Below, in pieces: positions 32,241 to 52,813 of a DNA stretch of 64,000 bases. Numbering within the stretch: position 1 is the stretch's first letter; every line of letters starts with the position of its first letter. The notes below the pieces were generated by a model, which worked only from the letters and a program-made list of their open reading frames with translations, made no database searches and was not told where the DNA came from. The stretch covers positions 2,905-66,904 of the forward strand of contig JBKPQH010000026.1 of the NCBI GenBank assembly GCA_046733935.1, written 5' to 3'. A program made the translations under genes and the position numbers. The stretch comes from Pseudomonadota bacterium (lineage in GTDB: Bacteria; Pseudomonadota; Alphaproteobacteria; Sphingomonadales; Sphingomonadaceae).

Positions 32241-32251
32241 CGAGCGAGAGC

Positions 32252-36128: not shown

Positions 36129-37469
36129 TTAGACTATGGTCGCTGGCGGTTCCGTGTGCCAGCTGGTGGGAGTATGGTACAGCGCAGCGGCGTTCCACGC
36201 GAAGCTTCCGTCGGCTTGCCCCGACCATTGGGAAAGCACGCCCGAATCGTCACGCCACAGGATGTCGTCGCGTAGGTCGCTGTTGTAATCGCCGATGGCG
36301 ACGATGTGCCAGTTGGCTGGCGTCTGGTAGATCGCCGCCGGGTTCCACGCGAAGCTTCCATCCGCCTGGCCGAGCCACTCGGACAGGACTCCACTGTCGT
36401 CACGCCACAGGATGTCGGCTTTGAAGTCGCCGTTGAAGTCGCCGGTGCCGACGACGTGCCAGCTCGCCGGGGTCTGGTAGATCGCATTGGGGTTCCAGGC
36501 GAAGCTCCCGTCGGCCTGGGCCAGCCACTCGGAGAGCACTCCGTTGTCGTCCCGCCACAGGATGTCGTCGAGACCGTCAGCATTGAAGTCGGCGGTGCCG
36601 GCCACGTGCCAGCTGCCGGGCGTCTGATAAATCGCGCTCGGGTTCCAGGCAAAGCTGCCGTTCGATTGGCCGAGCCATTCGGACAGGACTCCACTGTCAT
36701 CGCGCCACAGGATGTCCTGCCGCCCGTCGCCATTGAAGTCGTCGGTGGAGGCGATGTGCCAAGTGCCGGGGGTTTGGTAGACCGCGTTGGGGTTCCACGC
36801 GAAGCTGCCGTTGGGTTGGCCGAGCCATTCGGACACCACCCCAGCGTCGTCTCGCCACAAGACGTCGATACGGCCGTCGGCGTTGAAGTCCGCCGTGCCG
36901 GCAACGTGCCAGCTGCTCGCCGTCTGATACATCGAGGACGGGTTCCAGGCGAAGCTGCCGTTGCCCTGCGCCAGCCACTCCGACAACGTGCCGGAACTGT
37001 CGACCCACAGCAGGTCGCTGCGCCCGTCGCCGTTGAAATCGTTGTTTGCCGGGGCCACCAACCGGATATCGATGCCATTTTGAATGTCGGTGACCACGAG
37101 CCGGCCTGGCCCAATGTTGCTAATCGTTACGGAGCCGCCATTGTAGGTCAGGCCGGTTGCGGTGACGGTCACGTTGGCGGTCTGGGTCGTCAGCCCAGTG
37201 ATCTGGATGTGATCACCGATCTGCAGATCCGTTATGGTGTCACCGTCGAGACCGGACGCAGAGTCCTGGAACGTATCGATGCCGGTTCCACCGGTCAGCG
37301 TGTCTGTGCCAACTCCGCCCGTAAGAATGTCGTTGCCCGGCCCGCCGTCTATTGTGTCATTGCCGCCGTTTCCCTCGAGGGTGTCGTTTCCGTCCAGCCC
37401 GAGCATCGTGTCATCCAGGTCGCTGCCCTTAAGCAGGTCGGTACCGCTCGTCCCCGTAATCGTTGCCAT
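36129..37469 (-). CDS. RTX (hemolysin-type calcium-binding) + FG-GAP/VCBS repeat protein
   Basis: 446 aa, no signal peptide. aa 20-66 are GGxGxD nonapeptides (GNDTLEGNGGNDTIDGGPGNDILTGGVGTDTLTGGTGID). Six DFNGDG-type repeats start at aa 144, 194, 244, 294, 344 and 394. Confidence 0.85.
   Translation of the reverse strand: MATITGTSGTDLLKGSDLDDTMLGLDGNDTLEGNGGNDTIDGGPGNDILTGGVGTDTLTGGTGIDTFQDSASGLDGDTITDLQIGDHIQITGLTTQTANVTVTATGLTYNGGSVTISNIGPGRLVVTDIQNGIDIRLVAPANNDFNGDGRSDLLWVDSSGTLSEWLAQGNGSFAWNPSSMYQTASSWHVAGTADFNADGRIDVLWRDDAGVVSEWLGQPNGSFAWNPNAVYQTPGTWHIASTDDFNGDGRQDILWRDDSGVLSEWLGQSNGSFAWNPSAIYQTPGSWHVAGTADFNADGLDDILWRDDNGVLSEWLAQADGSFAWNPNAIYQTPASWHVVGTGDFNGDFKADILWRDDSGVLSEWLGQADGSFAWNPAAIYQTPANWHIVAIGDYNSDLRDDILWRDDSGVLSQWSGQADGSFAWNAAALYHTPTSWHTEPPATIV
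36150..37040 (-). repeat. six in-frame 150-bp tandem repeats (FG-GAP blades)
   Basis: Exact 50-codon periodicity, counted from the translation. This is a coding repeat, not CRISPR. Confidence 0.85.
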
Positions 37470-38532: not shown

Positions 38533-39094
38533 TACAATCCCCTTCTTCTGTGAGACGTTTACTTTATGAAATTAAATTTTCGTTCAAACATTTCTCTAAA
38601 TGGTGATCTAACTAAACGATAATTCATTGGGAGCGGCTTGTGAACATCTATTCAGTTACCGACCCGTTACATTCCTACGAAAAGTGTACCTCCAAGTGTC
38701 GCTTACGCAGCAGGCCAGACGCAGAACAGTCAAGGCAAGTTCCATTTAGGTGGCCAAATTTGAAAGTCTGTTGCGGGGATGCAACATTGCGTCAGGGGGC
38801 ACGGGCTGAAGATTCCGGGGAGGGCCTTCAGGCTTGACTGTTTGATTAAATTCAGCGACTTGCCGCGACTGACATACTGGCACTTTAGAAGAGGATAATG
38901 CGCCGCTTCTGGTCGGTGCCAAAGTTTTTCTGCATATTGTTTTCGGTTCAGAAATGAATTTGGCACTGAATCCATGAGGCAAGTCAAAGTGGCTGGTTTC
39001 GCGATGCTCGCCGAACAACGAACCGAGATCCGAGATTTCGGTGCTCGACTTGGCAATGCCGGTCAGTCCTAATCGATTGCGTCTGGGGTGGGAC
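38533..39094. promoter_or_regulatory. AT-rich divergent control region of the capsule operon and the OMP gene
   Basis: 562 bp with no convincing CDS. I counted 42 G+C in 38521-38640 (35%) against 44 of 60 (73%) in 38401-38460. Confidence 0.45.
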
Positions 39095-40243
39095 ATGGAA
39101 TTCGACTGTAAGCGTGCATACCCGGAGTGTCCTCCGGAAAACACCTTGTCACCAGATGGTGAGCTGAGCTCAGCTGAGTCGGCAGCCAACAATCTTATCG
39201 TTCCGGTAATCCTGAGCGGCGGTGGTGGCAGCCGCCTCTGGCCATTCTCAACTCAAGAGACCCCAAAGCAGTTCCTGCCACTTATTCAAAACAAGTGTCT
39301 ATTCGAGGAGGCGCTCGACCGCGTCCGAAATCCGATGGCTTTCGCGGCGCCGATCGTGGTCGGCAGCATCCATCACGCCGATCTTTGCGAGAAACTGCTC
39401 CGGCAGGACGGGGAGCAGGCTCGCTTGATTCTCGAACCCTGCGGGCGGAACACGGCGCCCGCAGTGGTGATGGCGGCGGCGGTTGCCGCGGAAACTCACG
39501 GCGAGGATGCGCTAATCCTGGTAATGCCGAGCGATCACATCATCGAAAAGATCGACGAGTTTCACGAAGCGATCGCTGTCGGTGAACCGGCTGCAGGGGC
39601 TGGTCGTCTCGTCACCTTCGGAGTGCGTCCGACCGGACCGGACACAGGCTACGGATATCTGAAGACCGGTGGTGATGTATCCGAGGCCCCGGGCGTCAAG
39701 GATGTGATCCGGTTCGTGGAGAAGCCCCAAGCGGACGTCGCGGAGACGATGGTTGCGAGCGGCGATCATCTTTGGAATGCCGGAATCTTTCTGTTCCGGG
39801 CCGCGACGTTGCTGTCGGAGGCAGCGGAGACATGCCCTGCGATCGCTGAAGCCGCGCGTCGTGCCGTGGCCAACGGTGACCGCGACGGGATCCGCATCAT
39901 TCCGGACGCGGATGTCCTTTCCAACTGCCCGTCTGAATCGATCGACTACGCGGTAATGGAGCTTTCATCGCGCGTTGCAGTCGTCCCTATGTCGCCCGGT
40001 TGGTCGGACCTCGGCAGTTGGGATGCCCTTGCGTCGGTTCTCGGCACCGCTTCGCCCGTGGGTCCGATTACGACGGTTGATTGCGAGAGTTGTTATATCC
40101 GCAGCGACGGGGTGCAGGTGGCGGCGCTCGGCGTGCGTGACCTGATCATCGTTGCGTCCGGCGGACGACTGCTAATTCTGCCCCGCGGACGATCACAAGA
40201 AGTGAAGAAGCTGCTTTCGGCGATGGACTCGATGGCCGCTTAA
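39095..40243 (+). CDS. manC: mannose-1-phosphate guanylyltransferase (no PMI domain)
   Basis: VPVILSGGGGSRLWPFS..PKQFL. The nearest ATG (39095) follows GGGGTGGGA. The track ORF starts at GTG 39041. Confidence 0.85.
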   Translation: MEFDCKRAYPECPPENTLSPDGELSSAESAANNLIVPVILSGGGGSRLWPFSTQETPKQFLPLIQNKCLFEEALDRVRNPMAFAAPIVVGSIHHADLCEKLLRQDGEQARLILEPCGRNTAPAVVMAAAVAAETHGEDALILVMPSDHIIEKIDEFHEAIAVGEPAAGAGRLVTFGVRPTGPDTGYGYLKTGGDVSEAPGVKDVIRFVEKPQADVAETMVASGDHLWNAGIFLFRAATLLSEAAETCPAIAEAARRAVANGDRDGIRIIPDADVLSNCPSESIDYAVMELSSRVAVVPMSPGWSDLGSWDALASVLGTASPVGPITTVDCESCYIRSDGVQVAALGVRDLIIVASGGRLLILPRGRSQEVKKLLSAMDSMAA

Positions 40244-40309: not shown

Positions 40310-41452
40310 GTGTATCACGATTCCAAAACGAGGTGGTCGATTTCCGCCCTTAAAGCCCGTGGGAGACTGCCCAAGGTCCAATGGCTGTTTCTCCTAACGG
40401 TCGTTTTGCCGACTGCGGTTGCCATCGTCTATTATGGCTTGTTCGCCTCCGACGTTTACGTCTCGGAGTCGCGGTTCGTCGTCCGTAGTCCGGATAAGCC
40501 CACGATGTCGGGCCTCGGTGTTCTGCTTAAGTCCACCGCATTCTCCACCGCGGGTGACGAGATTTATGCGGCAGATGATTATATTCAGTCTCGCGACGCG
40601 CTCCGGGCACTCAACCAGAACCAGGCTGTGGTGAGAGCCTATTCCAACGACGGAATCTCCATATTCGACCGTTTCAATCCGCTCGGGTGGGATGGCTCAT
40701 TCGAGAGTCTCTATGAGTATTTCAAAAAGAGAGTGCGGGTCGACTACGATACAACTTCCTCGATCACGACGCTCACGGTTCGCGCCTACACGCCGCAAGC
40801 AGCTCAGAGCTTCAACGCTCAACTGCTCGCGTTGGCAGAGGAGACCGTCAATCGGCTAAATCGGCGCGGGCGGGTAGATGTCGTCCAGCTATCGGAGCAG
40901 GAAGTCAGGGCGGCCGAGGAAGCTGAACGGCAGGCGGCCGCGTCTCTGGCGCAGTTCCGCAATGCGAGCGGAATCATCGACCCGGAGAAACAGGCGACGG
41001 TCCAGCTCCAGATGATCTCGAAGCTCCAGGACGAGTTGATCGGTTCGAGGATGCAGCTGCTGCAGCTTCGCAACATCGCACCGGAAAATCCGCAGATTCC
41101 AATCCTGCAGACACGGGTGGCCGGGTTGGCGCGGGAGATCGATCGGCAACTCGGCCTCGTGGCAGGCAATCGCCGATCTCTTTCGGCAACGGCTGCGCGC
41201 TACCAACGGCTCCAGCTTGATCGCGAATTTGCGGACAAGAGGCTCGCTGCGGCAATGACGTCCCTGCAGGAGGCCCGTGCCGAGGCCCGGCGCAAGCAGG
41301 CTTATGTCGAACGGATCGCGCAGCCGAGCCGGCCTGACGAGGCGCAGGAGCCCCGGCGCCTCCGCGGTGTCTTTGCTACATTTGTTCTCGGGCTCATTGC
41401 CTGGGCGATCCTCACCATGCTGCTGGCGGGTATCCGGGAGCACCATGGCTGA
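40310..41452 (+). CDS. kpsE: capsule export inner-membrane protein, KpsE/PCP-3 type
   Basis: 380 aa. N-terminal TM then SDVYVSESRFVVRS, a long coiled periplasmic region, and a C-terminal TM. Confidence 0.8.
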   Translation: MYHDSKTRWSISALKARGRLPKVQWLFLLTVVLPTAVAIVYYGLFASDVYVSESRFVVRSPDKPTMSGLGVLLKSTAFSTAGDEIYAADDYIQSRDALRALNQNQAVVRAYSNDGISIFDRFNPLGWDGSFESLYEYFKKRVRVDYDTTSSITTLTVRAYTPQAAQSFNAQLLALAEETVNRLNRRGRVDVVQLSEQEVRAAEEAERQAAASLAQFRNASGIIDPEKQATVQLQMISKLQDELIGSRMQLLQLRNIAPENPQIPILQTRVAGLAREIDRQLGLVAGNRRSLSATAARYQRLQLDREFADKRLAAAMTSLQEARAEARRKQAYVERIAQPSRPDEAQEPRRLRGVFATFVLGLIAWAILTMLLAGIREHHG

Positions 41453-42258
41453 TGGCCCTGGAGCTGCACAGCACCGGCGTTAGCCTCGCCCAGTCCTGGC
41501 GCGTCGAACGGCGCGTCATTTGGGCGCTGATGCTGCGGGAAATGCTGACTCGCTATGGGCGGCACAACATCGGCTTCCTTTGGCTGTTCGTGGAACCGAT
41601 GCTATTCACGCTTGGTATCACTACGCTGTGGACTGCATTGAGATCGGTCCACGGGTCCAATCTGCCCATAGTAGCTTTCGCAATCACCGGCTATTCGAGC
41701 GTCTTGCTGTGGCGGAACATGCCGAGCCGCTGCATGCGTGCTCTCGAACCGAACCTGTCGTTACTTTATCACCGAAACGTCCGCCCGATCGATGTCTACC
41801 TCGCGCGGTTGCTCCTGGAAGCTGCCGGCGCCACCATGTCCTTCGTGATGCTGACAATTTTCTTCCACTTCGTCGGTTGGCTCGATCTTCCGGAGGACGT
41901 GCTTCAGGTCGCCGGCGGCTGGTGCATGATCGCTTGGTTCGGGATTGCCTTGGCCATCTATTTAGGCGCGCTTTCCGAAACTTCGGAAACTGTCGAGAAA
42001 CTCTGGCATCCGGCTGCCTACCTCTTGTTCCCTCTTTCGGGTGCTGCCTTTCTTGTGGACGCGCTGCCAAGCGCAGCTCAGCGCCTCGTCCTCTACCTGC
42101 CGATGGTCAACGGCGTAGAGTTCGTTCGCCAGGGCTTCTTCGGCTCCAAGATGATCGCCCACTATGACATGGGCTACATGGCGGTGGTGAACACCGTACT
42201 CACCCTCCTCGGCCTGGCTCAGATGCGGAAGGTGAGCCGAACGGTGGTGCCGGAATGA
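41452..42258 (+). CDS. kpsM: capsule ABC transporter permease (ABC-2 type)
   Basis: 268 aa, about 6 TM. Start overlaps the kpsE stop (TGATG). Confidence 0.85.
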   Translation: MALELHSTGVSLAQSWRVERRVIWALMLREMLTRYGRHNIGFLWLFVEPMLFTLGITTLWTALRSVHGSNLPIVAFAITGYSSVLLWRNMPSRCMRALEPNLSLLYHRNVRPIDVYLARLLLEAAGATMSFVMLTIFFHFVGWLDLPEDVLQVAGGWCMIAWFGIALAIYLGALSETSETVEKLWHPAAYLLFPLSGAAFLVDALPSAAQRLVLYLPMVNGVEFVRQGFFGSKMIAHYDMGYMAVVNTVLTLLGLAQMRKVSRTVVPE

Positions 42259-42917
42259 TCCGCCTCACCAACGTCAATAAGGTTTACCCGACTCACGCGG
42301 GACCCGTGCACATTCTTCGCGACGTCGGCTTGACGGTCAGGCGCGGTGAGCGCGTCGGAATTCTGGGTCGAAATGGCGCCGGCAAATCTACGCTCATCCG
42401 TTTGGTTAGCGGGGCCGAGCTTCCGTCGAGCGGCGTCGTCGAGCGCCGTATGAGCGTATCCTGGCCGCTCGCGTTCGGAGGTGCTTTCCAGGGTTCCCTT
42501 ACCGGTCTCGACAATCTCCGATTCATTTGTCGCATCTACGGCGCCGATCCGGAAGAACATGTCGCGTTCGTGCAGGAGTTCTCGGAGCTGGGGCTTTACC
42601 TGCGCGAGCCCGTGAAGTCGTACTCGTCGGGGATGCGGGCGCGGCTTGCTTTCGCAATTTCGATGGTCATCGAATTCGACTGTTTCCTAATCGACGAAAT
42701 CATCGCCGTCGGCGACGCGCGTTTCCATGAAAAATGCAATAGGGAGCTGTTCGACAAGCGCGGAGATCGGGCGATGATCATTGTCTCGCACGACGCGAAC
42801 TTCATCCGCCAACATTGCACGAGGGCCGCGGTGCTCAGCGATGGAGAGCTGCACCATCACAGCAACCTGGACGATGCATTCGCTTTCTATCTCGAGGAAA
42901 CGGCGCTGGCGGCATGA
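42255..42917 (+). CDS. kpsT: capsule ABC transporter ATP-binding protein
   Basis: Walker A GRNGAGKST, signature YSSGMRARLAF, Walker B FDCFLIDE. 220 aa. Confidence 0.9.
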   Translation: MIRLTNVNKVYPTHAGPVHILRDVGLTVRRGERVGILGRNGAGKSTLIRLVSGAELPSSGVVERRMSVSWPLAFGGAFQGSLTGLDNLRFICRIYGADPEEHVAFVQEFSELGLYLREPVKSYSSGMRARLAFAISMVIEFDCFLIDEIIAVGDARFHEKCNRELFDKRGDRAMIIVSHDANFIRQHCTRAAVLSDGELHHHSNLDDAFAFYLEETALAA

Positions 42918-44179
42918 GGAAGAGTCTCCGAGGAGCTGCCGATCTGGGAGTGCGCCAAGCGTGGCTTTGGAAGCACCGTCGGCATCACCGCGACCACGCT
43001 GAAGGACCCCTGACGCGGCTTCTCGTGGACGTTTCGGCAATCATCCGTCACGACGCCCAGACCGGCATCCAGCGGGTCGTTCGTGCGGTCTGGTCGGAGC
43101 TCAGTCGGCTCAACGGGCAGGGTTTCGAGCTGCAGCCCGTTTTCGCCACGAATGCGCATGGTTATTGCTATGCGCCTACACCTTTCCTCGAGCACGGTGT
43201 GTCGACGACAAAGCGTGCGGTTGTTCGCGTTCGCCCTGGCGACAAGTTCCTAGGACTTGATCTTTCCGCTCATCTTCTGCCCAAATATCGTCAACAGCTA
43301 AGGGCTTGGCGGCGTCACGGGGCAACCATCCACCTGGTCGTTTACGACTTGTTGCCGCTAGTCCGCCCCGAATGGTTCACCCCGTCGTCTGCCAACAATT
43401 TCCGGAAGTGGGTTGAAATCGTAACGGAGGATGCCGACCAGGCTATCTGCATCTCCGACCACGTGGCTCATGAACTGGGTGGACATCTCGCCCGCACAGC
43501 AGCGGGCCGGGCCATGGCAATCGGACGCCTCGAAATGGGCGCCGATATTTCGGGCTCGATTCCATCCAGCGGCCTATCCCCCGAGGTCCGTCAGGTGCTC
43601 GACCAACTGCGGTTCCGTCGAGCAATCCTGATGGTCGGGACAGTTGAACCTCGCAAAGGCTACGATGTCGCGCTCGACGCTTTCGATTATCTGTGGCGCA
43701 CTGAGCAGGGGGCACCGGACCTGGTGCTTGTCGGCAAAGGCGGCTGGAAGACCGCAGAGCTTCAGCACCGCATTCGGATGCATCCTCAGTTCGGTCGACG
43801 GCTGCATTGGTTCGACCGTGTGAGCGACGAAGGCTTGTGCCAGCTGTACGAAGCATGCCGCGGAGTATTGATTGCCTCCCGCGGCGAAGGATTTGGCCTG
43901 CCGCTCGTGGAAGCCGCAATGCACAGCCGGCATGTCCTGGCGCGCGACTTGCCGGTTTTCCGCGAACGGCGCTTGCCGAACGTGCTCTATTTCTCGTCCG
44001 ATGAGCCTTGTGCCATGGGAGGTCGCCTCATGGACCTGCTGAGGGCCGCAGATTCCAGGCCTAACCCGCCCATCGAGCTGGCAACGTGGAAGGACTGCGT
44101 TGCCGGATTGCTGCGCGAGATAGGATTGCCGCTGCCACAACAAAGAGATGCTGGTTTTCCACTTCGAAAAGCGTCCTAA
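42914..44179 (+). CDS. glycosyltransferase family 4 (GT-B)
   Basis: From ATG 42914, overlapping the kpsT stop (ATGA). LLVDVSAIIRHDAQTGIQRV N-terminus and SRGEGFGLPLVEA. Confidence 0.8.
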   Translation: MRKSLRGAADLGVRQAWLWKHRRHHRDHAEGPLTRLLVDVSAIIRHDAQTGIQRVVRAVWSELSRLNGQGFELQPVFATNAHGYCYAPTPFLEHGVSTTKRAVVRVRPGDKFLGLDLSAHLLPKYRQQLRAWRRHGATIHLVVYDLLPLVRPEWFTPSSANNFRKWVEIVTEDADQAICISDHVAHELGGHLARTAAGRAMAIGRLEMGADISGSIPSSGLSPEVRQVLDQLRFRRAILMVGTVEPRKGYDVALDAFDYLWRTEQGAPDLVLVGKGGWKTAELQHRIRMHPQFGRRLHWFDRVSDEGLCQLYEACRGVLIASRGEGFGLPLVEAAMHSRHVLARDLPVFRERRLPNVLYFSSDEPCAMGGRLMDLLRAADSRPNPPIELATWKDCVAGLLREIGLPLPQQRDAGFPLRKAS

Positions 44180-44181
44180 AC

Positions 44182-46194
44182 TTGATCTCCTACGCTCAGA
44201 ATTACGAGGACGTGATCCTGTGGCGTGCGTTGCGCGTTGTGGCGGCAGGAACCTACATTGACGTAGGTGCGCATGATCCCGTGGTAGACTCGGTCAGCCT
44301 GGCCTTCTACCTGGCCGGGTGGCGCGGGACCCACGTCGAGCCGACGCCGCTTTATGCGCAGCGCATACGCGAGGCACGACCGGACGAAATCGTGGTCGAG
44401 GCCGCAGTCAGCGCTTCTCCAGGGCCGATGCGGTTCTTTGAGCTCAGCGGTCTCTCAACTGGACGTCGGGATATCGCGGAGCATCATGCACGCGCGGGCC
44501 ATCTTGCGCGCGAAATCCTCGTCCCGACAGTACGTCTTGGTGAGTTACTCAAGCTTGCGCCGGGCGACATCCACTGGCTGAAGATCGACGTCGAAGGGAT
44601 GGAGGCGGACGTCCTTCGCAGTTGGGACGATGTGGAGGTTCGTCCTTGGGTCCTTGTCATTGAAGCGACCTACCCCAACTCACAGGAGCCCACGCAGCAC
44701 CTTTGGATCGATGAAGTTCTGAAGCGTGGGTATGAGCAAGTCTTCTTCGATGGCTTGAGCTGCTACTTCCTACACAAAGACAAGCGCGAGCTTGCACCGC
44801 ACTTCGCGGCGCCGGCGAACGTTTTCGATGCTTACACGATCACCACCGATCATTTTTCGGCGGCGGACATTCGGGAGTCGTTGGAGATCGCCGAGCAGGC
44901 CAAGGCGGAGGCCCTTACCCATGCTGAACAGCTCGCCGGTGAGCTGACTCAAGCCAAGCTGCTTCAGCAAACCGCACAGAGCGCACAATGGCAGGCGGTC
45001 GACCGGCTCGCGAGGGCTGAGCAAGAGCATCGCACATCAGTGGAGTCGCTCTTGCAGGACCGGCAGGAAACCGAGCAGCGGACGCGCGAGCAACTCGAGA
45101 AGCTGGAAGCAGAAAGATCCGAAGCGCGCGTGGAGCTCGCTCGCCTGGAGGAACGCTGTGCCCAGCTGCAAGACAAGCTCGACCGCTCGGACGCGGTCAA
45201 TCGCAACGCAGGAGAGCAACTCGCTGCGCAGCAGATGCAATTGCGCGATTTCCGCAGCGAGGCGGAGCAGTGGCGTACTGAAGGCAATCAGTTACGCCAG
45301 CAGGTCGCACAGCTTCAGCAGATCATCGCTTCTGCGGACGTCCTTATCCGGAAAGCTGCTGCTGAGCCGGAGGGCAGATGGCAGCGGCTGGGCCTGTCCC
45401 TGGGCCTAGCTAGGCCGCGGGCGGCTTTGCAATCGCTTGCGAACTGGGCCGCAGGCTCTAGCGAGGTGCGCGGATTGCCCGGCAGTCGCAACGCCGAAGA
45501 AAGCGCAAGGACCAACTCCGGCATTTTAATGAATCTAACTGACCGAAACCCCTACCAGCGGGCCAACTCGCTAGCCGAGCTCCTGTCCTGGCCTGATGTC
45601 GATTTCGTTCGGTGCGCATATGTAACAATCCTCGGCCGTCAGCCCGATCGTGACGGCGAGGCCTATTATGCCGAGCGCGTGCGGGCAGGCCATTCCAAGC
45701 TGGAAGTGCTCTCGCAGTTGCGTAATTCTCCTGAGGCGCTCGGCCACGACCCGGGCATCGCCGGGCTCGATCGCGCTCTGCGCGCAGCACGCAGGGCGCG
45801 TATGCCGTTCCTCGGAGCCATATTCCGCGCTTTCGGTAACCAGGAGGGCGACCGTGCAGCGGACCGGCGGCGTCGCGCGATAGCCAATGAAATGGCCCTC
45901 CTTCGCGCGAGGAGCGATGCAGGTCTCTACCGGCTCCAGTCGCTTTCGTCGGCCATTCAGCGAGTTGACGATCGCTTGGAGGCGTTGGAAGGACGGCTTG
46001 CCAACGCGTCGCTCGACGTGGCTGGACCCGGTGCTCAATTCGGCGGGGCCCGGCGGCCTTCGCGGGAACTCACTGACCCTGTCGATATCAGTTCGGCAAC
46101 GACCCCCGATCAGGTAATCGGTTTGATCAAAAATGCGGTGAATACATCTCGCGAGGCGGCTGTATTCCACTCCCAGAGTCGTTCCAGCTCATGA
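44182..46194 (+). CDS. FkbM-type methyltransferase fused to a long coiled coil and a DUF4214-like domain
   Basis: TTG 44182 gives (M)ISYAQNYEDVILW, a typical FkbM start. DVGAHDP...WLKIDVEGMEADVL. A proline-free Q/E/R/L-rich stretch of ~160 aa. Then DVDFVRCAYVTILGRQPDRDGEAYY. Confidence 0.75.
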   Translation: MISYAQNYEDVILWRALRVVAAGTYIDVGAHDPVVDSVSLAFYLAGWRGTHVEPTPLYAQRIREARPDEIVVEAAVSASPGPMRFFELSGLSTGRRDIAEHHARAGHLAREILVPTVRLGELLKLAPGDIHWLKIDVEGMEADVLRSWDDVEVRPWVLVIEATYPNSQEPTQHLWIDEVLKRGYEQVFFDGLSCYFLHKDKRELAPHFAAPANVFDAYTITTDHFSAADIRESLEIAEQAKAEALTHAEQLAGELTQAKLLQQTAQSAQWQAVDRLARAEQEHRTSVESLLQDRQETEQRTREQLEKLEAERSEARVELARLEERCAQLQDKLDRSDAVNRNAGEQLAAQQMQLRDFRSEAEQWRTEGNQLRQQVAQLQQIIASADVLIRKAAAEPEGRWQRLGLSLGLARPRAALQSLANWAAGSSEVRGLPGSRNAEESARTNSGILMNLTDRNPYQRANSLAELLSWPDVDFVRCAYVTILGRQPDRDGEAYYAERVRAGHSKLEVLSQLRNSPEALGHDPGIAGLDRALRAARRARMPFLGAIFRAFGNQEGDRAADRRRRAIANEMALLRARSDAGLYRLQSLSSAIQRVDDRLEALEGRLANASLDVAGPGAQFGGARRPSRELTDPVDISSATTPDQVIGLIKNAVNTSREAAVFHSQSRSSS

Positions 46195-49100
46195 ATTTTC
46201 CAACTGATTTCAGAGGGCGGATCGTTCAGGTCGTAGAAGCGCTCGATGTCGGAGACGCCGTTTCCGGCCAGGTCATCGCGCTAGACGAGATGCTCCGCGA
46301 GATGGGCTTGAACAGTCAGGTGCTGGTCAAGTGGATGCATCACGACGTTCGTGGAAAATGCGATGTGCTCGACGACGTGAGGCTGACAGACGAAGATGTC
46401 GTGATCTATCACTCGGCCGGCTTCTCCGATCACAGCCTTCCCTATGTCCTCGACACCCATTGCACGCGCATCCTGCTGTACCACAACATCACGCCACACG
46501 AGTTCTTCGAAGAGAGCTCGGACCTACACGTTTTCTGCAAGAATGGACGGGAGCAGCTCAAGAGCGTCATCGGAGCTTTTCAGTACTTCTGGGCTGATAG
46601 CCAGTACAACCTCGACGAGCTCATCGAACTGGGAGCGCCGAAAGAGCGATGCCACGTGATCCCCATCATGGTAGCAAGCCCGGAACAGACGGGACACAGC
46701 GACAAGGTTCCGGGATCCTGGCTCTTCCTGGGGAGGATCGCTGCGAACAAGGGGCAAATGGATCTCGCCCAAGAGTTCCTGAAGGCCCGTCGAGAGGACC
46801 CGAAATCCGCATCCAAGCTCTTTCTAGTTGGGGGGTATAACGACCAGGAGCCCTATTACTGCGCTCTAAAGCAGCTCGTCGAAAGGAAGGGTAAGGGAAA
46901 TATCGTCCTCACGGGCAAGGTCGGCGACGCGCAGAAGGAACATTTTCTTCACCAGTCTGCGGTGTTCGTGAGCTTTAGCCGCCACGAGGGTTTCGGAGTG
47001 CCGCTGGTCGAAGCGCCGCTTCGTGGCACGCCAGTCATCGCGCTCTCCGGCACGGCGGTGGATGAGACGATGGGCGGGAGTTCAGGTGTCGCTGGGAGTG
47101 CCGCGGACGCTAGGCGCCTCGCAATGCGTGCCGCCCGCGACGAGGCATTCCGCGAGAAGCTCCTTATAGAGCAACAGTCGAATGCTGCTCGCTTCGAGAG
47201 ATCCGCCGTACGCTCGAAATTATGGAATGCGCTCGAGGACGTACTTCCGGCCCGAGATCGGTACCGCAAAGTGTCGGTTGTCGTCTGCACGTACAATCGG
47301 CGCGCGGATCTGGAGCGCTGTCTCGATTATCTCGCCTACCAGTCGAGCCCTTCGTTTGAAGTCGTCGTCGTGGACGGACCCTCGACGGACGGGACCAAAG
47401 AGCTGCTGGCGGAGTGGGAAGGTCGCGTTAAGATCGTTCACAATCCCGAGCGAAATCTGTCGGTCTCGCGCAACTTGGGTGCAGATGCTGCGGCGGGCGA
47501 CATTGTCGCTTACATCGACGATGACGCGATTCCGTTCGCCGATTGGGTCGACACCTTGCTGCGAGAGTTCAACCAGCGGCCAGCCACGACAGCGGCTCTG
47601 GGAGGACCAGCCTATCTCGCAGGATCCTTGAAGTTTCAGGTCGAGGACATCGCATTCAACAAGTTTGCGGAAGCCTGGGCCAATGTGGACTCAGACAAGA
47701 TTGGCAAAGACGGGTGGGTGCGGTCGCTATTGGGTACGAATACTGCGTTTTCCCGCTCCTACCTGCAAGAGGTGGGGGGGTTCGACGAGCAGTATGACTA
47801 TTTCCTCGACGAATCCGATCTAACGTTCAGGCTTCAGTCGCACGGTGCTCTCGTTGCCTATTGCCCAGACCTGTACCTCCGTCATGAGTTCGCTCGAAGT
47901 GACAATCGCAAGGGCAAGTACACGTTCAATTGGTACTCGATCTCGAAGAACACGACTTACTTTATTGCCCTCTACTCCGGGCTCGGAGGAGAGGAGCTGT
48001 TACAATACGTCAAGGAGAAGTTGGCGAAGGAACGAGTAGCTCCCCTCGATGCAGCATTGGCTGCCGGCAACATCAATAAAAAACTTCACTCACAGCTGGT
48101 GGCCGAAATCTGGCGCGGCATGAAGCAAGGGTTGAAAGACAGCGAGCGCGGCGTGATGACCCGCCAGATCTCGCCGCCGCCGACGAATTTCTTGCCATTC
48201 GAGAGCAGCGCGTCTTTTCGCAGGGTCGGCGTCGATATCCGCCGGCTTCACATTTGCATCCTGAGTAAAGAGTTCCCGCCGTTCGGCGCTGCGGGAGGAA
48301 TTGGTACGCTCTACTACCATCTCGCCAGCGAGCTGCTCTTGCTGGGCCACGAAGTGACGGTCGTGCTGCCGTCGGACGCAACGAGCCGTTTCGATCAGGG
48401 TAGATTCCACATCCGCTATGTTCAGCGCGGCCCCGTCGAGTTTCGCGAGGAGCCCCCCGCAACGGCGGCAAATCTCTCATGGTCCCTCAGAGCGGCAGCT
48501 GCGGTAGCGGAGATTCACGGCGAGCGCGCGGTCGACATCGTCGACTCAGCGCTGTGGGATACGGAAGCGCTGGCGCTTGCGCTCATCGAGCAACCAAGGC
48601 CGCCGGTCGTGGCAAGGCTCGTCACGCCTTTCGCCGTCGCGGCGGAGACCAACGGATGGATCCTACAGCCCGAGATCGCGGCTCAGTACGTTGCGGCTGA
48701 AAAGGCTCTCATTGAGCATGCCGACGCCGTGGTCGGTATCAGTGATTCCATCATTAAGACTGTTGCTACCCAATATTGCATGGAGCCTGACCGCCGCTGG
48801 TACGTGAGCCATTGCGGGATCGCGTATTGGCCGTTCTTCAATTGGCATGATGATTATGACGAACTCACCGGGGAAGAGAAGATCGGCCGGTTCGTTGCTC
48901 GCTATCCGAAGACGGTCCTTTTCGTCGGGCGGCTGGAGCGCCGCAAAGGCATCGACACTCTCATAGCAGCTGCCGCCGACTTCCTTGGCAAACACAAGAA
49001 CGTCGGCCTGATCGTCTGTGGTCAGGATATAGAAGATTGGCAGACGAAAGCTGCGAAGATGGTGCCTGCAGGGGTGAGATCTCAGATCCTGTTTACCGGC

Positions 49101-49565
49101 AATGTGTCGGACGCCACTCGAGAGAAGCTGATGGCGCGTGCCTACTGTCTCGTGTTTCCCTCACGCTATGAATCCTTCGGATTGGTTCCTCTCGAAGCTT
49201 TTGTGCACGGTGTTCCGGTGATCGCAGCGCAAGCCGGAGCAATTCCCGAGGTAGTTGCGGACGGCACGTCCGGCCTGCTCTTCCCCGCGCAGGACGCGAG
49301 CAGTCTGGCGCAAAAGGTCGATGCACTCATCTTGGACACCGCACTCCAAGAGCGATTGTCCTGCGGAGCTCGGCGCGCAATACACGAGTTCAGTGGCCGC
49401 GCGTCTGCGATACGTGCCATCGATCTCTACGCGTCACTGCTTGGCGACAAAGCCACTGCCGATAGGGCGCTCGAAAGTTCCGATCGCCGATTTTCCGAGA
49501 AACGAGATGACAAACGGGCCGTGGAGCCCAACGTCGTCGCTTGTGCCGCAGACAGCGCGCCATAA
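46191..49565 (+). CDS. three-module glycosyltransferase (GT4 - GT2 - GT4), 1124 aa
   Basis: aa 1-330 GT4 (SRHEGFGVPLVEA). aa 360-600 GT2 (VSVVVCTYNR...VVVVDGPSTDGT...YIDDDAIP). aa 685-1080 GT4 (GGIGTLYYHL...PSRYESFGLVPLEAFVHGVPVIA). Confidence 0.85.
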   Translation: MNFPTDFRGRIVQVVEALDVGDAVSGQVIALDEMLREMGLNSQVLVKWMHHDVRGKCDVLDDVRLTDEDVVIYHSAGFSDHSLPYVLDTHCTRILLYHNITPHEFFEESSDLHVFCKNGREQLKSVIGAFQYFWADSQYNLDELIELGAPKERCHVIPIMVASPEQTGHSDKVPGSWLFLGRIAANKGQMDLAQEFLKARREDPKSASKLFLVGGYNDQEPYYCALKQLVERKGKGNIVLTGKVGDAQKEHFLHQSAVFVSFSRHEGFGVPLVEAPLRGTPVIALSGTAVDETMGGSSGVAGSAADARRLAMRAARDEAFREKLLIEQQSNAARFERSAVRSKLWNALEDVLPARDRYRKVSVVVCTYNRRADLERCLDYLAYQSSPSFEVVVVDGPSTDGTKELLAEWEGRVKIVHNPERNLSVSRNLGADAAAGDIVAYIDDDAIPFADWVDTLLREFNQRPATTAALGGPAYLAGSLKFQVEDIAFNKFAEAWANVDSDKIGKDGWVRSLLGTNTAFSRSYLQEVGGFDEQYDYFLDESDLTFRLQSHGALVAYCPDLYLRHEFARSDNRKGKYTFNWYSISKNTTYFIALYSGLGGEELLQYVKEKLAKERVAPLDAALAAGNINKKLHSQLVAEIWRGMKQGLKDSERGVMTRQISPPPTNFLPFESSASFRRVGVDIRRLHICILSKEFPPFGAAGGIGTLYYHLASELLLLGHEVTVVLPSDATSRFDQGRFHIRYVQRGPVEFREEPPATAANLSWSLRAAAAVAEIHGERAVDIVDSALWDTEALALALIEQPRPPVVARLVTPFAVAAETNGWILQPEIAAQYVAAEKALIEHADAVVGISDSIIKTVATQYCMEPDRRWYVSHCGIAYWPFFNWHDDYDELTGEEKIGRFVARYPKTVLFVGRLERRKGIDTLIAAAADFLGKHKNVGLIVCGQDIEDWQTKAAKMVPAGVRSQILFTGNVSDATREKLMARAYCLVFPSRYESFGLVPLEAFVHGVPVIAAQAGAIPEVVADGTSGLLFPAQDASSLAQKVDALILDTALQERLSCGARRAIHEFSGRASAIRAIDLYASLLGDKATADRALESSDRRFSEKRDDKRAVEPNVVACAADSAP

Positions 49566-49694: not shown

Positions 49695-50747
<1,053 letters not shown>

Positions 50748-50781: not shown

Positions 50782-51681
50782 ATGCCACGTACACTCATCA
50801 CCGGAATCGGCGGGTTCACCGGTCGGTATCTCGCGCCGGTCCTGGCAGGTTTGGGGCACGAAGTGCATGGAATCGTGCATGTCTCCGATGGACACCCTGT
50901 TGACGGCGCGCACAGGCTTTACCAAGCGGACCTAGCGGATCTTGCAAGCGTGGAGCGTATCGTCTCGGAGGTTCGCCCCGATCATGTAGCTCATCTCGCT
51001 GGCATTGCGTTCGTAGCGCACTCAGACGTCGACCAAATGTATCGTGCGAATGTCGTGGGCACCCGGCAGCTGCTCGAGGCGGTCGCCAGTTTGACCATAG
51101 TGCCCAAGTCGGTGCTGATCGCCAGCAGCGCCAACGTCTATGGAAACGCGCACGAGGGGCTACTCGCTGAGAGCAGCATGTTGGCTCCGGTTAATGATTA
51201 CGGGGTGAGCAAGGTTGCCACTGAGTACGTCGCTTCGATTTACAAAGGGCGTTTGCCCCTCATAGTTGTACGACCGTTCAATTACACCGGCAGGGGGCAA
51301 GGTTCGCAGTTCATCATTCCAAAGATCGTTGAACATGCGCGGACCCGGGCGCCGGTTATCGAATTGGGCAATCTCGACGTCGCGCGCGATTTCTCCGATG
51401 TGCGAACTGTGGTGGACGTTTACGCACGGCTGCTTGCGGAGCCGAAAGCGGTCGGGGGAACGTTCAACGTATCTTCAGGCCGCGCGGTCGCTCTAAGAGA
51501 CGTAATAGAAATCGTTCAAAGCATCTCGGGTCATAGTTTTGGGGTTCACGTGAATCCGGCGTTCGTACGAGCCAATGAAGTGCGAACGCTGTGCGGATCG
51601 GCAGCCAAGCTCCAGCAGGTTATTGGCCCACTGCCCGCAATTCCGCTCCAGGAAACATTGCGCTGGATGCTCGAAGGCTAG
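50782..51681 (+). CDS. rmd: GDP-4-keto-6-deoxy-D-mannose reductase (GDP-D-rhamnose synthase; a talose-forming homologue is not excluded)
   Basis: 299 aa. ITGIGGFTGRYL, YGVSKVATE (YxxxK), VVRPFNYTGRGQ, LDVARDFSDVR. Matches remembered P. aeruginosa Rmd. Confidence 0.75.
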   Translation: MPRTLITGIGGFTGRYLAPVLAGLGHEVHGIVHVSDGHPVDGAHRLYQADLADLASVERIVSEVRPDHVAHLAGIAFVAHSDVDQMYRANVVGTRQLLEAVASLTIVPKSVLIASSANVYGNAHEGLLAESSMLAPVNDYGVSKVATEYVASIYKGRLPLIVVRPFNYTGRGQGSQFIIPKIVEHARTRAPVIELGNLDVARDFSDVRTVVDVYARLLAEPKAVGGTFNVSSGRAVALRDVIEIVQSISGHSFGVHVNPAFVRANEVRTLCGSAAKLQQVIGPLPAIPLQETLRWMLEG

Positions 51682-51685
51682 CTAA

Positions 51686-52813
51686 ATGCGTGTGACGCTC
51701 TGTGTCGATGCGTTGGAGCCTCAACTCGGTGGCATCGGCCGATACACGTGGGAGCTGTGCAAGCGACTTCCGCAAAGCAGCCAGATATCGACAGTGCAGT
51801 TCATCCGCGCCGGCTCGCTGGTCGAAGACCCTGCTCTTCTGCGCCGCGACGAGAAGTATCGCCCGAGCTTCTTCCGGCGCCATCCGAGGTGGCTGAGGAG
51901 GTGGCGGGCCCGGACAGCCCTCCAATCGGGGCTCGTCCATGGACCGAATTATTTCCTGCCCCGTGAAGCTGAGACGGGAATTATCACAGTCCACGACCTT
52001 TCGGTTTTCCGGTACCCCGACATGCATCCAGCCGAACGCGTCAGAGCTTTTGATCGGCTGTTTGCATCGTCCCTTGGTCGAGCCGCTCACGTCGTCACCG
52101 ACACGGAAACGGTCAGAGGCGAGCTAATTGATGCATTCTCGCTCGCGCCCGGGTTTGTATCGGCCGTGCCCCTCGGGGTTGATGCCCGTTTCGCGCCGAA
52201 GAACCGCACTGAGGTTGCCAGTACGATCGAGCAGTGGCGTCTCGAGCCGGGCTGCTATGGTCTCAGCGTTGCTGCCTTCGAGCCGAGAAAGAAGATTGCG
52301 GAGCTGCTTGCCGCATGGCGACGGCTGCCGAATGACATTCGTGCCCGACATCCATTGGTGCTCGCGGGTGGGGCGGGCTGGCAGAATCAGCCACTCCACC
52401 AGCAGATTTCAAGCGCCGTGTCGGAAGGCTGGCTCAAATACATCGGCTTCGTGGACGACGCGCACTTGCCCGCGCTTTATGCGGGAGCACGGCTGTTCAT
52501 CTACCCATCTGTGTACGAGGGCTTTGGCCTTCCACCCGTCGAAGCGATGGCCAGCGGAACGCCGGTGGTGGTAGCAAATCGCTCGTGCTTGCCTGAAGTC
52601 TGCGGCGAAGCGGCGCAGTTTGTTGACCCTGACGATTCCGACAGCTTCACGTCCACAATCGAGCTATGCCTTGTAGACCAGGAATGGCAGTCGAGCGCCA
52701 TTGCCCGCGGCCTAGAGCGCGCGGCGCGGTATACTTGGGAGCTTTGTGCCGCGCAGACGGTCGAGGTCTATTCGAAGGTATATGGCGAGATTTGCGGCTC
52801 TCCGGCGGGTTGA
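51686..52813 (+). CDS. glycosyltransferase family 4
   Basis: 375 aa. GGIGRYTWEL and PSVYEGFGLPPVEAMASGTPVV. Confidence 0.85.
   Translation: MRVTLCVDALEPQLGGIGRYTWELCKRLPQSSQISTVQFIRAGSLVEDPALLRRDEKYRPSFFRRHPRWLRRWRARTALQSGLVHGPNYFLPREAETGIITVHDLSVFRYPDMHPAERVRAFDRLFASSLGRAAHVVTDTETVRGELIDAFSLAPGFVSAVPLGVDARFAPKNRTEVASTIEQWRLEPGCYGLSVAAFEPRKKIAELLAAWRRLPNDIRARHPLVLAGGAGWQNQPLHQQISSAVSEGWLKYIGFVDDAHLPALYAGARLFIYPSVYEGFGLPPVEAMASGTPVVVANRSCLPEVCGEAAQFVDPDDSDSFTSTIELCLVDQEWQSSAIARGLERAARYTWELCAAQTVEVYSKVYGEICGSPAG

Follow-up and report, generated by a model that had tools for sequence, protein, structure and literature searches.

An FkbM methyltransferase with a coiled-coil stalk and DUF4214 module: a candidate chain terminator and length ruler in a Kps-type capsule locus

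What determines chain length in ABC-transporter-dependent (Kps) capsules is acknowledged to be an open question. Reviews presume that chain length follows from synthesis and export; by the prevailing view Kps transporters recognise their glycan by its lipid end, and the Hib capsule is described as having 'no chain terminating residue'. Coiled-coil rulers joined to terminators have been established for O-antigens only, in systems whose transporters bear a carbohydrate-binding module (CBM), and a coil that carries the terminator distally has been called a 'characteristic marker' of the capping strategy (PMC11231755). The locus described here encodes a methyltransferase with a long coil next to a putative polymerase, and loci of this type make the question testable in capsules. 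The window, that is, the whole stretch of 64,000 nucleotides analysed, comes from a soil bacterium.

As the original prediction had proposed, the surroundings of the gene form a Kps-type capsule locus. Profile matches on the forward strand identify manC (mannose-1-phosphate guanylyltransferase, 39041–40243), a kpsE-like gene (40310–41452), kpsM (41452–42258) and kpsT (42255–42917). The glycosyltransferase gene GT4a (42815–44179), assigned by Pfam and synteny, overlaps kpsT, so that translation probably starts 3′ of 42815. Beyond the methyltransferase gene and its large glycosyltransferase neighbour lie, on the same strand, gmd (49713–50747) and a gene for an rmd-like reductase (50782–51681), which belong to the GDP-D-rhamnose pathway, GT4b (51686–52813; Pfam and synteny), and kpsC and kpsS for beta-Kdo linker synthesis (52746–55894, with the true start of kpsS near 54650). 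GT4c (55855–56970) and a gene for a kpsD-like OPX export protein (57022–58248), both found by profile matches, are on the reverse strand, as are kdsA, rmlA, rmlD, rmlB and rmlC upstream of the locus (29458–33918), which cover Kdo-8-P and dTDP-L-rhamnose supply.

KpsM/KpsT, KpsE (PCP-3), a KpsD-like OPX protein, KpsC and KpsS are all found in this one locus. KpsC carries two Capsule_synth modules and KpsS one, and the KpsD-like protein has Poly_export/SLBB domains. The match to the KpsE family TIGR01010 scores 359 bits, under the cutoff of 437, and the KpsM and KpsS models also match below their equivalog cutoffs; judged by these profiles, the set is complete yet diverged from its enterobacterial equivalogs. 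KpsT consists of 220 residues with an ABC_tran domain only, and its length is 215–220 residues across related Kps loci. The cap-reading CBM on the transporter ATPase that marks WbdD/WbbB-type systems is absent from the window KpsT. The cassette of kpsE-M-T, GT4a, methyltransferase gene, large glycosyltransferases, gmd-rmd and GT4b, together with kpsC/S/D, recurs in at least 12 genomes across the Alpha-, Beta- and Gammaproteobacteria; genera in which it is conserved are Sphingomonas, Novosphingobium, Chakrabartia, Legionella, Polaromonas, Cupriavidus, Paraburkholderia and Burkholderia.

The gene itself, delimited by the ORF list, homologue starts and Pfam matches, occupies 44182–46194 on the forward strand and encodes 670 residues between a TTG start and a TGA stop. 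The frame is open over 44086–46194 in the ORF scan. TTG 44182, 2 nt past the TAA of the upstream GT4 gene, is the sole start that fits the homologues, whose starts lie 0–2 residues before the N-terminal sequence (M)ISYAQNYEDV. An alternative GTG start at 44086 (702 residues) was rejected, as it overlaps the upstream gene and adds an extension absent from every homologue. At E<1e-5 the protein has 925 homologues, and both the FkbM and the DUF4214 Pfam domains are present in 116 of the 120 best, which argues that the architecture is not a chance assembly. Its four expected parts, FkbM domain, long helix, DUF4214 and second helix, were all recovered by Pfam, AlphaFold2 (AF2) and a heptad scan.

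The N-terminal part (residues 1–208, 44182–44805) is an FkbM-family class I SAM-dependent methyltransferase domain, identified by Pfam, TIGR01444, AF2, Foldseek and sequence motifs. PF05050 (Methyltransf_21/FkbM) matches residues 27–184 with E=8e-24 (85.1 bits; cutoff 22.7) and TIGR01444 matches with E=1e-14 (55.1 bits; cutoff 37.7). The three motifs on which the assignment had originally been based are all present. Among 120 relatives, the SAM-loop and KIDVEG motifs are kept throughout, and the residues of D-x-G-A and W-x-K-x-DVEG-x-E vary little or not at all. The residues singled out as catalytic in this protein are D27 and G29 in the SAM loop, with K134, D136 and E138. The AF2 model has pLDDT values above 90 in this domain, and the Foldseek matches of the full model are class I sugar and small-molecule methyltransferases of a generic kind. 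A search of PDB sequences with the family profile returned only compositional matches to coiled coils and, for the head and DUF4214, no relative with a solved structure. Motifs and model together indicate an intact methyltransferase domain with a class I Rossmann fold, of a kind predicted to be able to modify a non-reducing terminal sugar. The claim that the protein uses a catalytic fold different from that of WbdD therefore fails: FkbM has the same superfold as the WbdD methyltransferase and only the family differs.

Between the head and the C-terminal end runs an extended coil of the sort found in WbdD/WbbB-type rulers. Its limits (residues 225–393, 44854–45360; 169 residues, about 25 nm) are taken from AF2, the heptad scan, the range of lengths and the indels. 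AF2 models it as a single continuous helix with pLDDT of about 80–87, dropping to about 57 near the C-terminal end (residues 370–420), in what is a monomer model. Residues 212–395 are free of proline, and Q, E, R, L and A account for 68% of the coil stretch against 50% of the whole protein, in keeping with the composition first remarked upon. In a crude heptad scan, residues 228–257, 295–346 and 353–380 score above the 99th percentile of shuffles and residues 258–294 have no assigned heptad signal. Together with the PDB matches to coiled-coil proteins and the indels described below, helix and heptad signal show that the coil is real.

Nearly all of the length variation in the family is located in this coil, which spans 141–401 residues between fixed anchors. 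The N-domain is mostly 224–227 residues long (two shorter outliers have 156 and 175), DUF4214 is 71–72 and the linker 48–69 (one outlier has 154). We scored 44 coil indels in 34 pairs of close relatives. The sizes are 7 (ten times), 11 (seven times) and 4 residues (four times), in addition to 14, 21, 28, 56, 18, 22, 25 and 32; among those of up to 14 residues, 22 of 27 measure 4, 7, 11 or 14 residues (p=2e-8). Indels outside the coil in these close-relative pairs are mostly of 1–3 residues. In one instance, two proteins (P0063 and P0075) are 99% identical apart from a single 32-residue coil indel. The coil lengths of the family as a whole have no periodicity at 7, 11 or 18 residues; the phase signal appears only when single indels between close relatives are scored. 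Insertions and deletions between close relatives preserve the heptad or hendecad phase. The variation in length as such may reflect no more than neutral drift in a spacer of low complexity.

The coil is followed by a conserved motif, AEPEGRWQRLGLSLGLARP... (residues 394–420, 45361–45441), in which W400 and G404 are nearly invariant, and by a flexible linker (residues 421–450, 45442–45531) modelled with low confidence (pLDDT <50). The DUF4214 segment noticed at the outset is borne out by PF13946 at residues 472–520 (E=7e-8; 32.8 bits, cutoff 23.2). Invariant columns and pLDDT of 95–98 delimit a wider folded helical unit, residues 451–540 (45532–45801), starting RNPYQRANSL and ending in an invariant HDPGIAGLDRAL motif plus a basic amphipathic helix. 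The second short coil, too, is recovered as a 51-residue AF2 helix (residues 559–609, 45856–46008; pLDDT about 88–92) with a heptad signal at residues 579–615. The C-terminal tail (residues 610–670, 46009–46191) comprises a disordered stretch and then helices at residues 642–668, and is weakly conserved among Kps-type relatives. WbdD has a C-terminal amphipathic membrane helix, and we found no equivalent in this protein, the tail helix at residues 642–668 having only a modest hydrophobic moment. No other membrane anchor came to light; the strongest basic amphipathic segment by this measure, residues 521–548 within the conserved HDPGIAGLDRAL region, is the best candidate for one.

The DUF4214–coil2 module also exists as a standalone protein, which starts at exactly the RNPYQRANSL residue. 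It lies alone, directly 5′ of the polymerase gene, in two Kps/gmd/rmd loci: that of Sphingobium algorifonticola, which is without FkbM, and a second that has a separate FkbM gene of 380 residues. At E<=1e-30, 393 representatives match the module. The original prediction gave neither DUF4214 nor the second coil a role; from these occurrences they appear to form an autonomous, polymerase-associated module. DUF4214 is present in 9 of 11 KpsT loci but in none of 30 loci with a CBM-bearing Wzt (Fisher p=1.6e-7); among these loci it is specific to the Kps context.

An association with the polymerase is suggested by the genomes, through gene overlap, conserved adjacency and Rosetta-stone fusions. The ATGA at 46191–46194, in which the methyltransferase stop overlaps the next ATG, was found as predicted; the downstream gene (46191–49565, forward strand) encodes an 1124-residue protein with the Pfam order GT4–GT2–GT4, a putative polymerase. 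In 11 of 14 loci the homologue's stop overlaps or abuts the start of the next ORF, and the neighbouring ORFs that were scanned encode GT4-first glycosyltransferases, of 784–1605 residues in most loci. FkbM, coil, DUF4214 and glycosyltransferases are joined in one polypeptide in L005 (1505 residues), L011 (2328) and P0204 (1858), and by alignment the window glycosyltransferase is colinear with the GT4–GT2 part of these fused proteins. P0287 (1430 residues) has the arrangement DUF4214x2–GT4x2–GT2. Gene order and fusions place the head at the N-terminus and the end coupled or fused to the polymerase at the C-terminus.

Relatives of the head occur in O-antigen loci. FkbM–coil proteins of Stenotrophomonas maltophilia, Ralstonia pickettii, Dyella, Luteibacter and others have a homologous N-domain (about 40–51% identity) and, like the window protein, a coil after the head and a locus that makes GDP-D-rhamnose. 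They are shorter, at about 400–500 residues (median about 457 for the FkbM–coil products of Wzm/Wzt loci) with a coil of about 40–300, and where the window protein has DUF4214 they end in SWRxTxPxR and a basic tail of about 100 residues. The SWRxTxPxR element resembles the post-coil motif and may be its counterpart. Their transporter partner bears Wzt_C, whereas the window KpsT is without a CBM: in 30 gmd/rmd-type Wzm/Wzt loci the ATPase has at least 382 residues, and Wzt_C was confirmed in both ATPases scanned (5e-28, 4e-39). The FkbM gene is directly 3′ of wzt in all five loci examined. By this position, the short relatives appear to carry the classical signature of a capped glycan, and the notion of an FkbM terminator as an isolated invention must be given up. 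In a rough NJ tree of the head clade, built without support values and not cleanly resolved, the Kps-type heads fall mainly into two groups interleaved with O-antigen-type heads of Xanthomonadales, with the Legionella head L006 apart. A literature search found no experimental paper on these O-antigen-locus proteins.

On balance, we think that the gene probably encodes the chain-terminating, length-setting subunit of a Kps-type pathway (ABC-transporter-dependent, anchored on poly-Kdo-lipid) for a rhamnose-rich capsule. We infer the following sequence of events. Through its C-terminal module, made up of the post-coil motif, DUF4214, second coil and tail, the protein would dock physically onto the GT4–GT2–GT4 polymerase on the cytoplasmic side of the inner membrane, probably as an oligomer. 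The coil would keep the FkbM O-methyltransferase at a distance from the polymerase until the chain has grown so far that its non-reducing end meets the head. Methylation of a rhamnose hydroxyl on this terminal, rather than an internal, sugar would then stop further extension, and, as with WbdD, the minimum or modal chain length would be set by the length of the coil. Without a cap-reading module on KpsT, capping would serve to control length and have no part in licensing export; since Kps transporters are thought to read the lipid end, a cap would have no known reader here.

The same lack of a cap-reading CBM fits a different use of the enzyme, in which FkbM would methylate internal rhamnose, in every repeat or at random, the coil and DUF4214 would hold and oligomerise it in the complex, and the balance of polymerisation and KpsMT export would set chain length, much as reviews presume for ABC-dependent capsules. 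The directly downstream second FkbM gene in the Legionella locus L006, which implies more than one methylation step, also agrees with it. So does precedent from the common polysaccharide antigen (CPA, a D-rhamnan) of Pseudomonas aeruginosa: PA5457 and PA5459 are gmd/rmd-pathway methyltransferases that influence chain length, but unlike the window protein they have no coiled coil or interaction domains, and their overexpression gives no WbdD-like chain shortening, so that finding a methyltransferase gene in a D-rhamnan locus does not by itself point to a terminator. Internal methylation nevertheless has no obvious need for a stalk of 21–60 nm that puts the enzyme at such a distance from the polymerase, heads of the same clade are encoded next to Wzt proteins whose CBMs read terminal caps, and the coil changes length fast while keeping its phase. 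We regard this use of the enzyme as unlikely.

Quite unlikely, in our estimate, is a scheme that puts the scaffold first. Here DUF4214–coil2 would be essential to polymerase assembly, processivity or membrane recruitment and might bind glycan, FkbM and its coil being an optional addition whose cap would label completed chains, for example to guard them from degradation or to alter the surface, without measuring them. The module beside a polymerase in a locus without FkbM, its direct fusion to polymerase glycosyltransferases in P0287 and its many matching representatives all speak for this, as does a preprint in which Psh, an RTX-DUF4214 protein of Pseudomonas putida, is reported to bind O-antigen and a role of DUF4214 at the glycan cap is proposed (bioRxiv 10.64898/2026.09.02.748959). 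Psh shares DUF4214 but is secreted, extracellular and without an enzyme domain, whereas the DUF4214 of the window protein appears, from its gene context, to be cytoplasmic and polymerase-associated. The fold bears a weak likeness to the protein-docking modules known as phycobilisome-linker domains, yet these were the only Foldseek matches of the C-terminal module and are not significant (E about 1). A scaffold role leaves the hypervariable coil and its in-phase indels unexplained, and it could hold together with a terminator and ruler instead of replacing them.

Members of the FkbM family act on a wide range of acceptors, but we think it highly improbable that this one methylates the Kdo linker or lipid at the reducing end, or some different molecule, with the stalk reaching, for example, KpsMT–KpsE: a 125-residue C-terminal extension of Legionella qingyii KpsT with weak DUF4214-like motifs hints at a link to the transporter, but the likeness (14.7 bits) is at motif level, without a Pfam match, and we rejected it as a DUF4214; moreover, the head clade is common to undecaprenyl-linked O-antigen systems without a Kdo-lipid anchor, and in the loci compared the gene is coupled to the polymerase gene and never to kpsMT.

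For the terminator and ruler, the same layout caps and measures surface sugar chains in other bacteria, so that some capsules may carry a built-in length ruler. A wider reading, that a widespread subset of Kps capsules has a genetically encoded chain length, set by a capsule-specific terminator-ruler of three exchangeable parts, namely an FkbM head, a coil of 21 to over 60 nm tuned through heptad or hendecad indels, and a DUF4214–coil2 dock not recognised before, is speculative and in our view doubtful as it stands. In such systems DUF4214–coil2 may also bind the nascent glycan, taking over part of the role of the Wzt CBM, since no CBM is present. Were chain length so encoded, this would be the first cytoplasmic function for DUF4214 and would overturn the view of ABC-dependent capsules as terminator-free; docking to the polymerase would in itself give this large domain of unknown function its first functional context. 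The locus type is present in cultivable Cupriavidus, Paraburkholderia, Legionella and Asticcacaulis, with C. basilensis, P. sediminicola, P. acidicola ATCC 31363, L. qingyii and A. benevestitus among the carriers, and nature supplies controls in the S. algorifonticola locus with the DUF4214 module only and in near-identical proteins that differ by a single coil indel. Capsule chain length bears on surface properties, phage and immune recognition, and glyco-engineering.

Precedents for the parts come from several systems. In our literature search we found no paper on FkbM with a coiled coil or on DUF4214 with a methyltransferase, though the census of Mann, Kimber & Whitfield (2019) may list FkbM-type terminators of CBM-linked systems. 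Terminal O-methylation is documented in E. coli O101, where the O-methyl cap needs a methyltransferase-plus-coiled-coil protein (PMC13168486), and in Aquifex, where a D-rhamnan carries a 3-O-methyl-D-rhamnose cap (PMC9445017). The original prediction held that such terminators are not expected in Kps loci. This agrees with the mainstream view, but coiled-coil methyltransferases had already been noted in E. coli group 3: many capsule clusters there encode putative methyltransferases with coiled coils of variable length, to which no function was given, the variation being treated as not critical for K-antigen production (PMC13171606, 2026). The K114_5-like proteins resemble the window protein in their Kps-type loci, N-terminal SAM methyltransferase and strain-variable coil length; K114_5 is a PANTHER 'rhamnosyl O-methyltransferase' followed by about 490 residues of predicted coils. 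The methyltransferase family described there is PF13578, against PF05050 here, and the supplementary entries examined list no DUF4214 for these proteins. We suggest that they deserve the same scrutiny.

The comparative evidence points to a layout like that of WbdD (E. coli O9a/O8; Klebsiella O3/O5), as originally proposed: a distal catalytic head, a long coil, a C-terminus placed near the polymerase, and translational coupling. Both proteins have an N-terminal head that includes a class I SAM methyltransferase, then a long coil and a C-terminal end, which in WbdD recruits the separate multi-module GT4 polymerase WbdA; in both systems the polymerase is the product of a separate, adjacent gene. 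They differ in having no sequence homology, in the FkbM head being without a kinase, and in the C-terminal region, which is DUF4214 and a second coil here and an amphipathic helix in WbdD. The pathway is Kps-type in the window (poly-Kdo-lipid, KpsMT without a CBM), whereas WbdD serves an Und-PP pathway with Wzm/Wzt-CBM. In Klebsiella O12 WbbB and O7 ORF6 a single polypeptide has the order terminator, coil, polymerase, as in L005, L011 and P0204. Their heads are a beta-Kdo glycosyltransferase (O12 WbbB) and a methyltransferase, kinase and CBM (O7), where the window protein has FkbM, and both are without DUF4214 and come from O-antigen systems with a CBM-bearing Wzt. Set beside them, the window gene is a split, translationally coupled version of the FkbM–coil–DUF4214–GT4(–GT2) fusions that resemble the WbbB/ORF6 order.

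The methyltransferase gene lies in an open frame at window positions 44086–46194 (+). Within this frame, TTG at 44182, two bases past the TAA of the upstream GT4 glycosyltransferase gene, is the only family-compatible start; it yields a 670-residue protein with the N-terminus (M)ISYAQNYEDV, and homologue starts fall no more than two residues away. Pfam places a Methyltransf_21/FkbM domain at residues 27–184 (E = 8e-24) and a DUF4214 domain at residues 472–520 (E = 7e-8), and NCBIfam gives a match to TIGR01444. A monomeric AlphaFold2 model (120-sequence alignment, mean pLDDT 81) comprises a Rossmann domain at residues 1–208 (pLDDT above 90), a single long helix at 225–393, a disordered linker at 421–450, a compact helical DUF4214 domain (pLDDT 95–98), a second helix at 559–609 (coil2) and short terminal helices at the C-end. 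Gln, Glu, Arg, Leu and Ala make up 68% of the long helix, and a crude heptad scan gave a signal above the 99th percentile of shuffles at residues 228–257, 295–346, 353–380 and 579–615. The stop codon and the ATG of the next gene share ATGA at 46191–46194. Because the domain matches, model, composition, heptad scan and ATGA agree, the four-part product, its coiled coil and the overlap with the downstream glycosyltransferase gene, all described in the original prediction, are real; the observation is confirmed and its interpretation upheld in part. The prediction erred in assigning the FkbM head a catalytic fold different from that of WbdD, since Foldseek groups it with class I methyltransferases, the superfold of the WbdD methyltransferase. 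With each species represented by one genome, the nearest genomes are those of sphingomonads, and the sequence is present in soil metagenomes from at least 10 studies.

The surrounding genes form a true Kps-type system, as had been proposed. They run manC, a KpsE-family gene (TIGR01010, 359 bits), KpsM, KpsT (220 residues, ABC domain only), GT4a, the methyltransferase gene, a gene for a 1124-residue GT4–GT2–GT4 protein (the putative polymerase), gmd (equivalog), an rmd-like reductase, GT4b, KpsC with two Capsule_synth modules and KpsS, followed on the other strand by GT4c and a KpsD-like OPX protein. Mechanical ORFs overlap by 70–400 nt at kpsT/GT4a (42815–42917), GT4b/kpsC (52746–52813) and kpsC/kpsS (54161–54566); GT4a and kpsS probably begin downstream of these ORF starts, the KpsS profile match opening only at residue 163, near nucleotide 54650. 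Just upstream of the locus, kdsA and a complete rmlA–rmlD–rmlB–rmlC set occupy 29458–33918 (−), so that together with gmd and rmd the window encodes both the dTDP-L-rhamnose and GDP-D-rhamnose pathways. Given these genes and the Kps set, the polymer is probably rhamnose-rich (D-Rha, possibly also L-Rha) on a Kdo-lipid anchor, and may contain both enantiomers. Two large RTX/FG-GAP repeat proteins, probable type I secretion substrates, flank the locus at 36129–37469 (−) and 58354–60897 (−), the latter also carrying PPC, a serralysin-like M10 peptidase domain and an M10 C-terminal domain.

At E < 1e-5 the family comprises 925 proteins in a sequence search, and 116 of the 120 best contain both Pfam domains in lengths of 604–922 residues. 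Segments were measured between nearly invariant anchor residues. The N-domain mostly spans 224–227 residues (two shorter outliers, 156 and 175), the post-coil linker 48–69 (one outlier, 154) and the DUF4214 core 71–72, and the coil segment ranges from 141 to 401; conservation is high in head and DUF4214 and low in the coil. No periodicity of coil length was found across the whole family. Individual indels were scored on 34 minimum-spanning-tree edges joining proteins whose N-domains exceed 80% identity, giving 44 coil indels: ten of 7 residues, seven of 11 and four of 4, with others of 14, 21, 28, 56, 18, 22, 25 and 32. Of the 27 measuring 14 residues or fewer, 22 are of 4, 7, 11 or 14 residues, an excess over uniform expectation with binomial p = 2e-8, for edges that are not fully independent. 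Non-coil indels in these close relatives are mostly of 1–3 residues, and one pair of proteins is 99% identical, coil included, apart from a single 32-residue indel. We take the segment to be a genuine coiled coil whose length shifts fast by structurally allowed steps. The extremes include P0204, L011 (374–7357), where some 630 residues part FkbM from DUF4214 (a fully helical stretch would measure roughly 90 nm), and the homologous protein P0203, in which FkbM is followed by about 1100 residues with four DUF4214 repeats.

The stop codon of the homologous gene overlaps or abuts the next ORF in 11 of 14 loci; that ORF encodes a GT4-first glycosyltransferase in nine of the ten scanned, of 784–1605 residues in most loci. 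Fused forms also occur: FkbM–coil–DUF4214–GT4 in L005 (1505 residues), FkbM–coil–2×DUF4214–GT4×2–GT2 in L011 (2328 residues) and P0204 (1858 residues), and 2×DUF4214–GT4×2–GT2 without the head in P0287 (1430 residues). L005 and L011 are on short MAG contigs, L011 reaching the contig end. The window glycosyltransferase aligns colinearly with P0204 and P0287 across the GT4–GT2 junction. The module from RNPYLRANSL onwards (residues 451 to ~617) recurs as standalone proteins of 180–260 residues, up to 69% identical, and a profile search with it gave 393 cluster representatives at E ≤ 1e-30. Two standalone proteins, of 192–216 residues, are encoded immediately ahead of the capsule polymerase gene in Kps/gmd/rmd loci that are syntenic with the window. 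That of Sphingobium algorifonticola (GCA_004005485.1; L081:10001–10579) is directly upstream of the polymerase in a Kps/gmd/rmd locus that has no FkbM and is otherwise syntenic with the window. In L083 the gene (10001–10651) overlaps the start of a 1372-residue multi-GT4 gene, after which comes a separate 380-residue FkbM gene; its product itself opens with a DUF4214-like motif, SFVEDSYRVLLGRLPEND. Because the module is coupled to, fused to or found standalone next to polymerase genes, DUF4214–coil2 appears to be an autonomous partner of the polymerase, with FkbM and the long coil as an N-terminal addition. The only fold resemblance of DUF4214 in Foldseek is a weak one (E ~1) to phycobilisome-linker docking domains; a preprint reports O-antigen binding by an RTX–DUF4214 protein (bioRxiv 10.64898/2026.09.02.748959), and by analogy DUF4214 could possibly also contact glycan. 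An Archangium MAG (L047:1625–3601 (−)) has the inverted order DUF4214 (residues 242–291), coiled coil (348–432) and Methyltransf_23 (458–616); as this joins DUF4214 and coil to another class I methyltransferase head, it suggests that DUF4214 with a coil is a scaffold on which methyltransferases of several families can be mounted.

Mapping the window genes onto 80 loci, one genome per species, revealed two contexts. The Kps-type cassette (kpsE–kpsM–kpsT/GT4a/homologue/large glycosyltransferases/gmd–rmd/GT4b with kpsC/S/D/GT4c) is found in Sphingomonas, Novosphingobium, Chakrabartia, an alphaproteobacterial MAG, Legionella qingyii, Polaromonas, Cupriavidus basilensis, three Paraburkholderia and one Burkholderia; it is syntenic in at least 12 genomes, within a family of hundreds of proteins. 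The 30 O-antigen-type loci, most with gmd/rmd, come from Stenotrophomonas maltophilia, Ralstonia pickettii, Dyella, Luteibacter, Massilia and others. Their ATPases have at least 382 residues, and both of the two scanned carry the carbohydrate-binding module (CBM) Wzt_C (5e-28, 4e-39). The FkbM gene directly follows wzt in all five loci fully read, and its product (median ~457 residues) consists of FkbM and coil without DUF4214, with an SWRxTxPxR motif in 22 of 30 and, among sequences read, a basic tail of ~100 residues. In the FkbM–coil genes of L025, L058, L037, L067 and L028 (~9992–11460), this motif occupies the place equivalent to G-R-W-Q-R-L-G-L at residues 398–405 of the window protein. 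Of the 11 KpsT-type loci, 9 have DUF4214, against none of the 30 with Wzt-CBM (Fisher p = 1.6e-7). Published accounts give a coiled-coil terminator with a CBM-bearing transporter as the hallmark of capped glycans; because its O-antigen-type members pair coil with Wzt-CBM, the head clade seems tied to terminal capping, and DUF4214 is the Kps-specific element. The L. qingyii KpsT (L006:7951–8985 (−), NZ_RZGX01000017.1) has 344 residues, with a 125-residue C-terminal extension at the Wzt CBM position containing two DUF4214-resembling xxYxxxLGRxPExxE-like motifs; the extension scores weakly against the family HMM (14.7 bits) and has no Pfam match.

Beyond the observed architecture, domain identities, synteny, fusions and pattern of coil variation, we infer polymerase binding, terminal specificity, termination and a ruler effect. 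The C-terminal module would dock onto the polymerase at the membrane, and a stalk of ~25 nm would hold the methyltransferase apart from it; chains reaching the head would be O-methylated at the non-reducing end and extended no further, at a threshold set by coil length. We lean slightly towards this full mechanism. That the protein is a polysaccharide O-methyltransferase and that it is in complex with the polymerase are each more likely than the whole; control of chain length by the length of the coil is less likely. Against the mechanism we count a KpsT without a cap reader, the description of Kps-type capsules as lacking terminating residues, P. aeruginosa common polysaccharide antigen methyltransferases that are not WbdD-like, the drop in AlphaFold2 confidence at the coil C-end in the monomeric model, and the lack of any membrane anchor found in the window protein.

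Terminators had not been expected in Kps loci. Precedent is partial: PMC13171606 points out coiled coils of differing length in putative methyltransferases from many group 3 capsule clusters of E. coli, and its supplement lists, in an E. coli Kps cluster, K114_5, with 857 residues, a PF13578 methyltransferase and then ~490 residues of coils. Its methyltransferase family differs from that of the window protein, its entry shows no DUF4214, and the paper ascribes no function to it. Supplementary file 3 of that paper also lists K115_10, from an E. coli Kps cluster, with 589 residues, an N-terminal P-loop domain and coils at 336–468; from this entry it may represent another kind of coiled-coil terminator encoded by capsule loci, kinase- or sulfotransferase-like. 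In E. coli O101, recent experiments support installation of a terminal O-methyl cap by a methyltransferase-plus-coiled-coil protein (PMC13168486). The window protein has no sequence homology to WbdD, WbbB or O7 ORF6, but its topology appears like that of proven terminators, head distal and polymerase proximal. The proposed split of terminator and polymerase would resemble WbdD, and its fused relatives may be likened to WbbB or O7 ORF6. A transporter-borne CBM, which is the second feature that defines the capped-glycan class, was sought and is absent from the window locus; we therefore file the protein as a variant outside the prototypical class, a candidate coiled-coil terminator and ruler that a DUF4214 docking module would fit to the assembly of Kps-type capsules, widespread and open to experiment.
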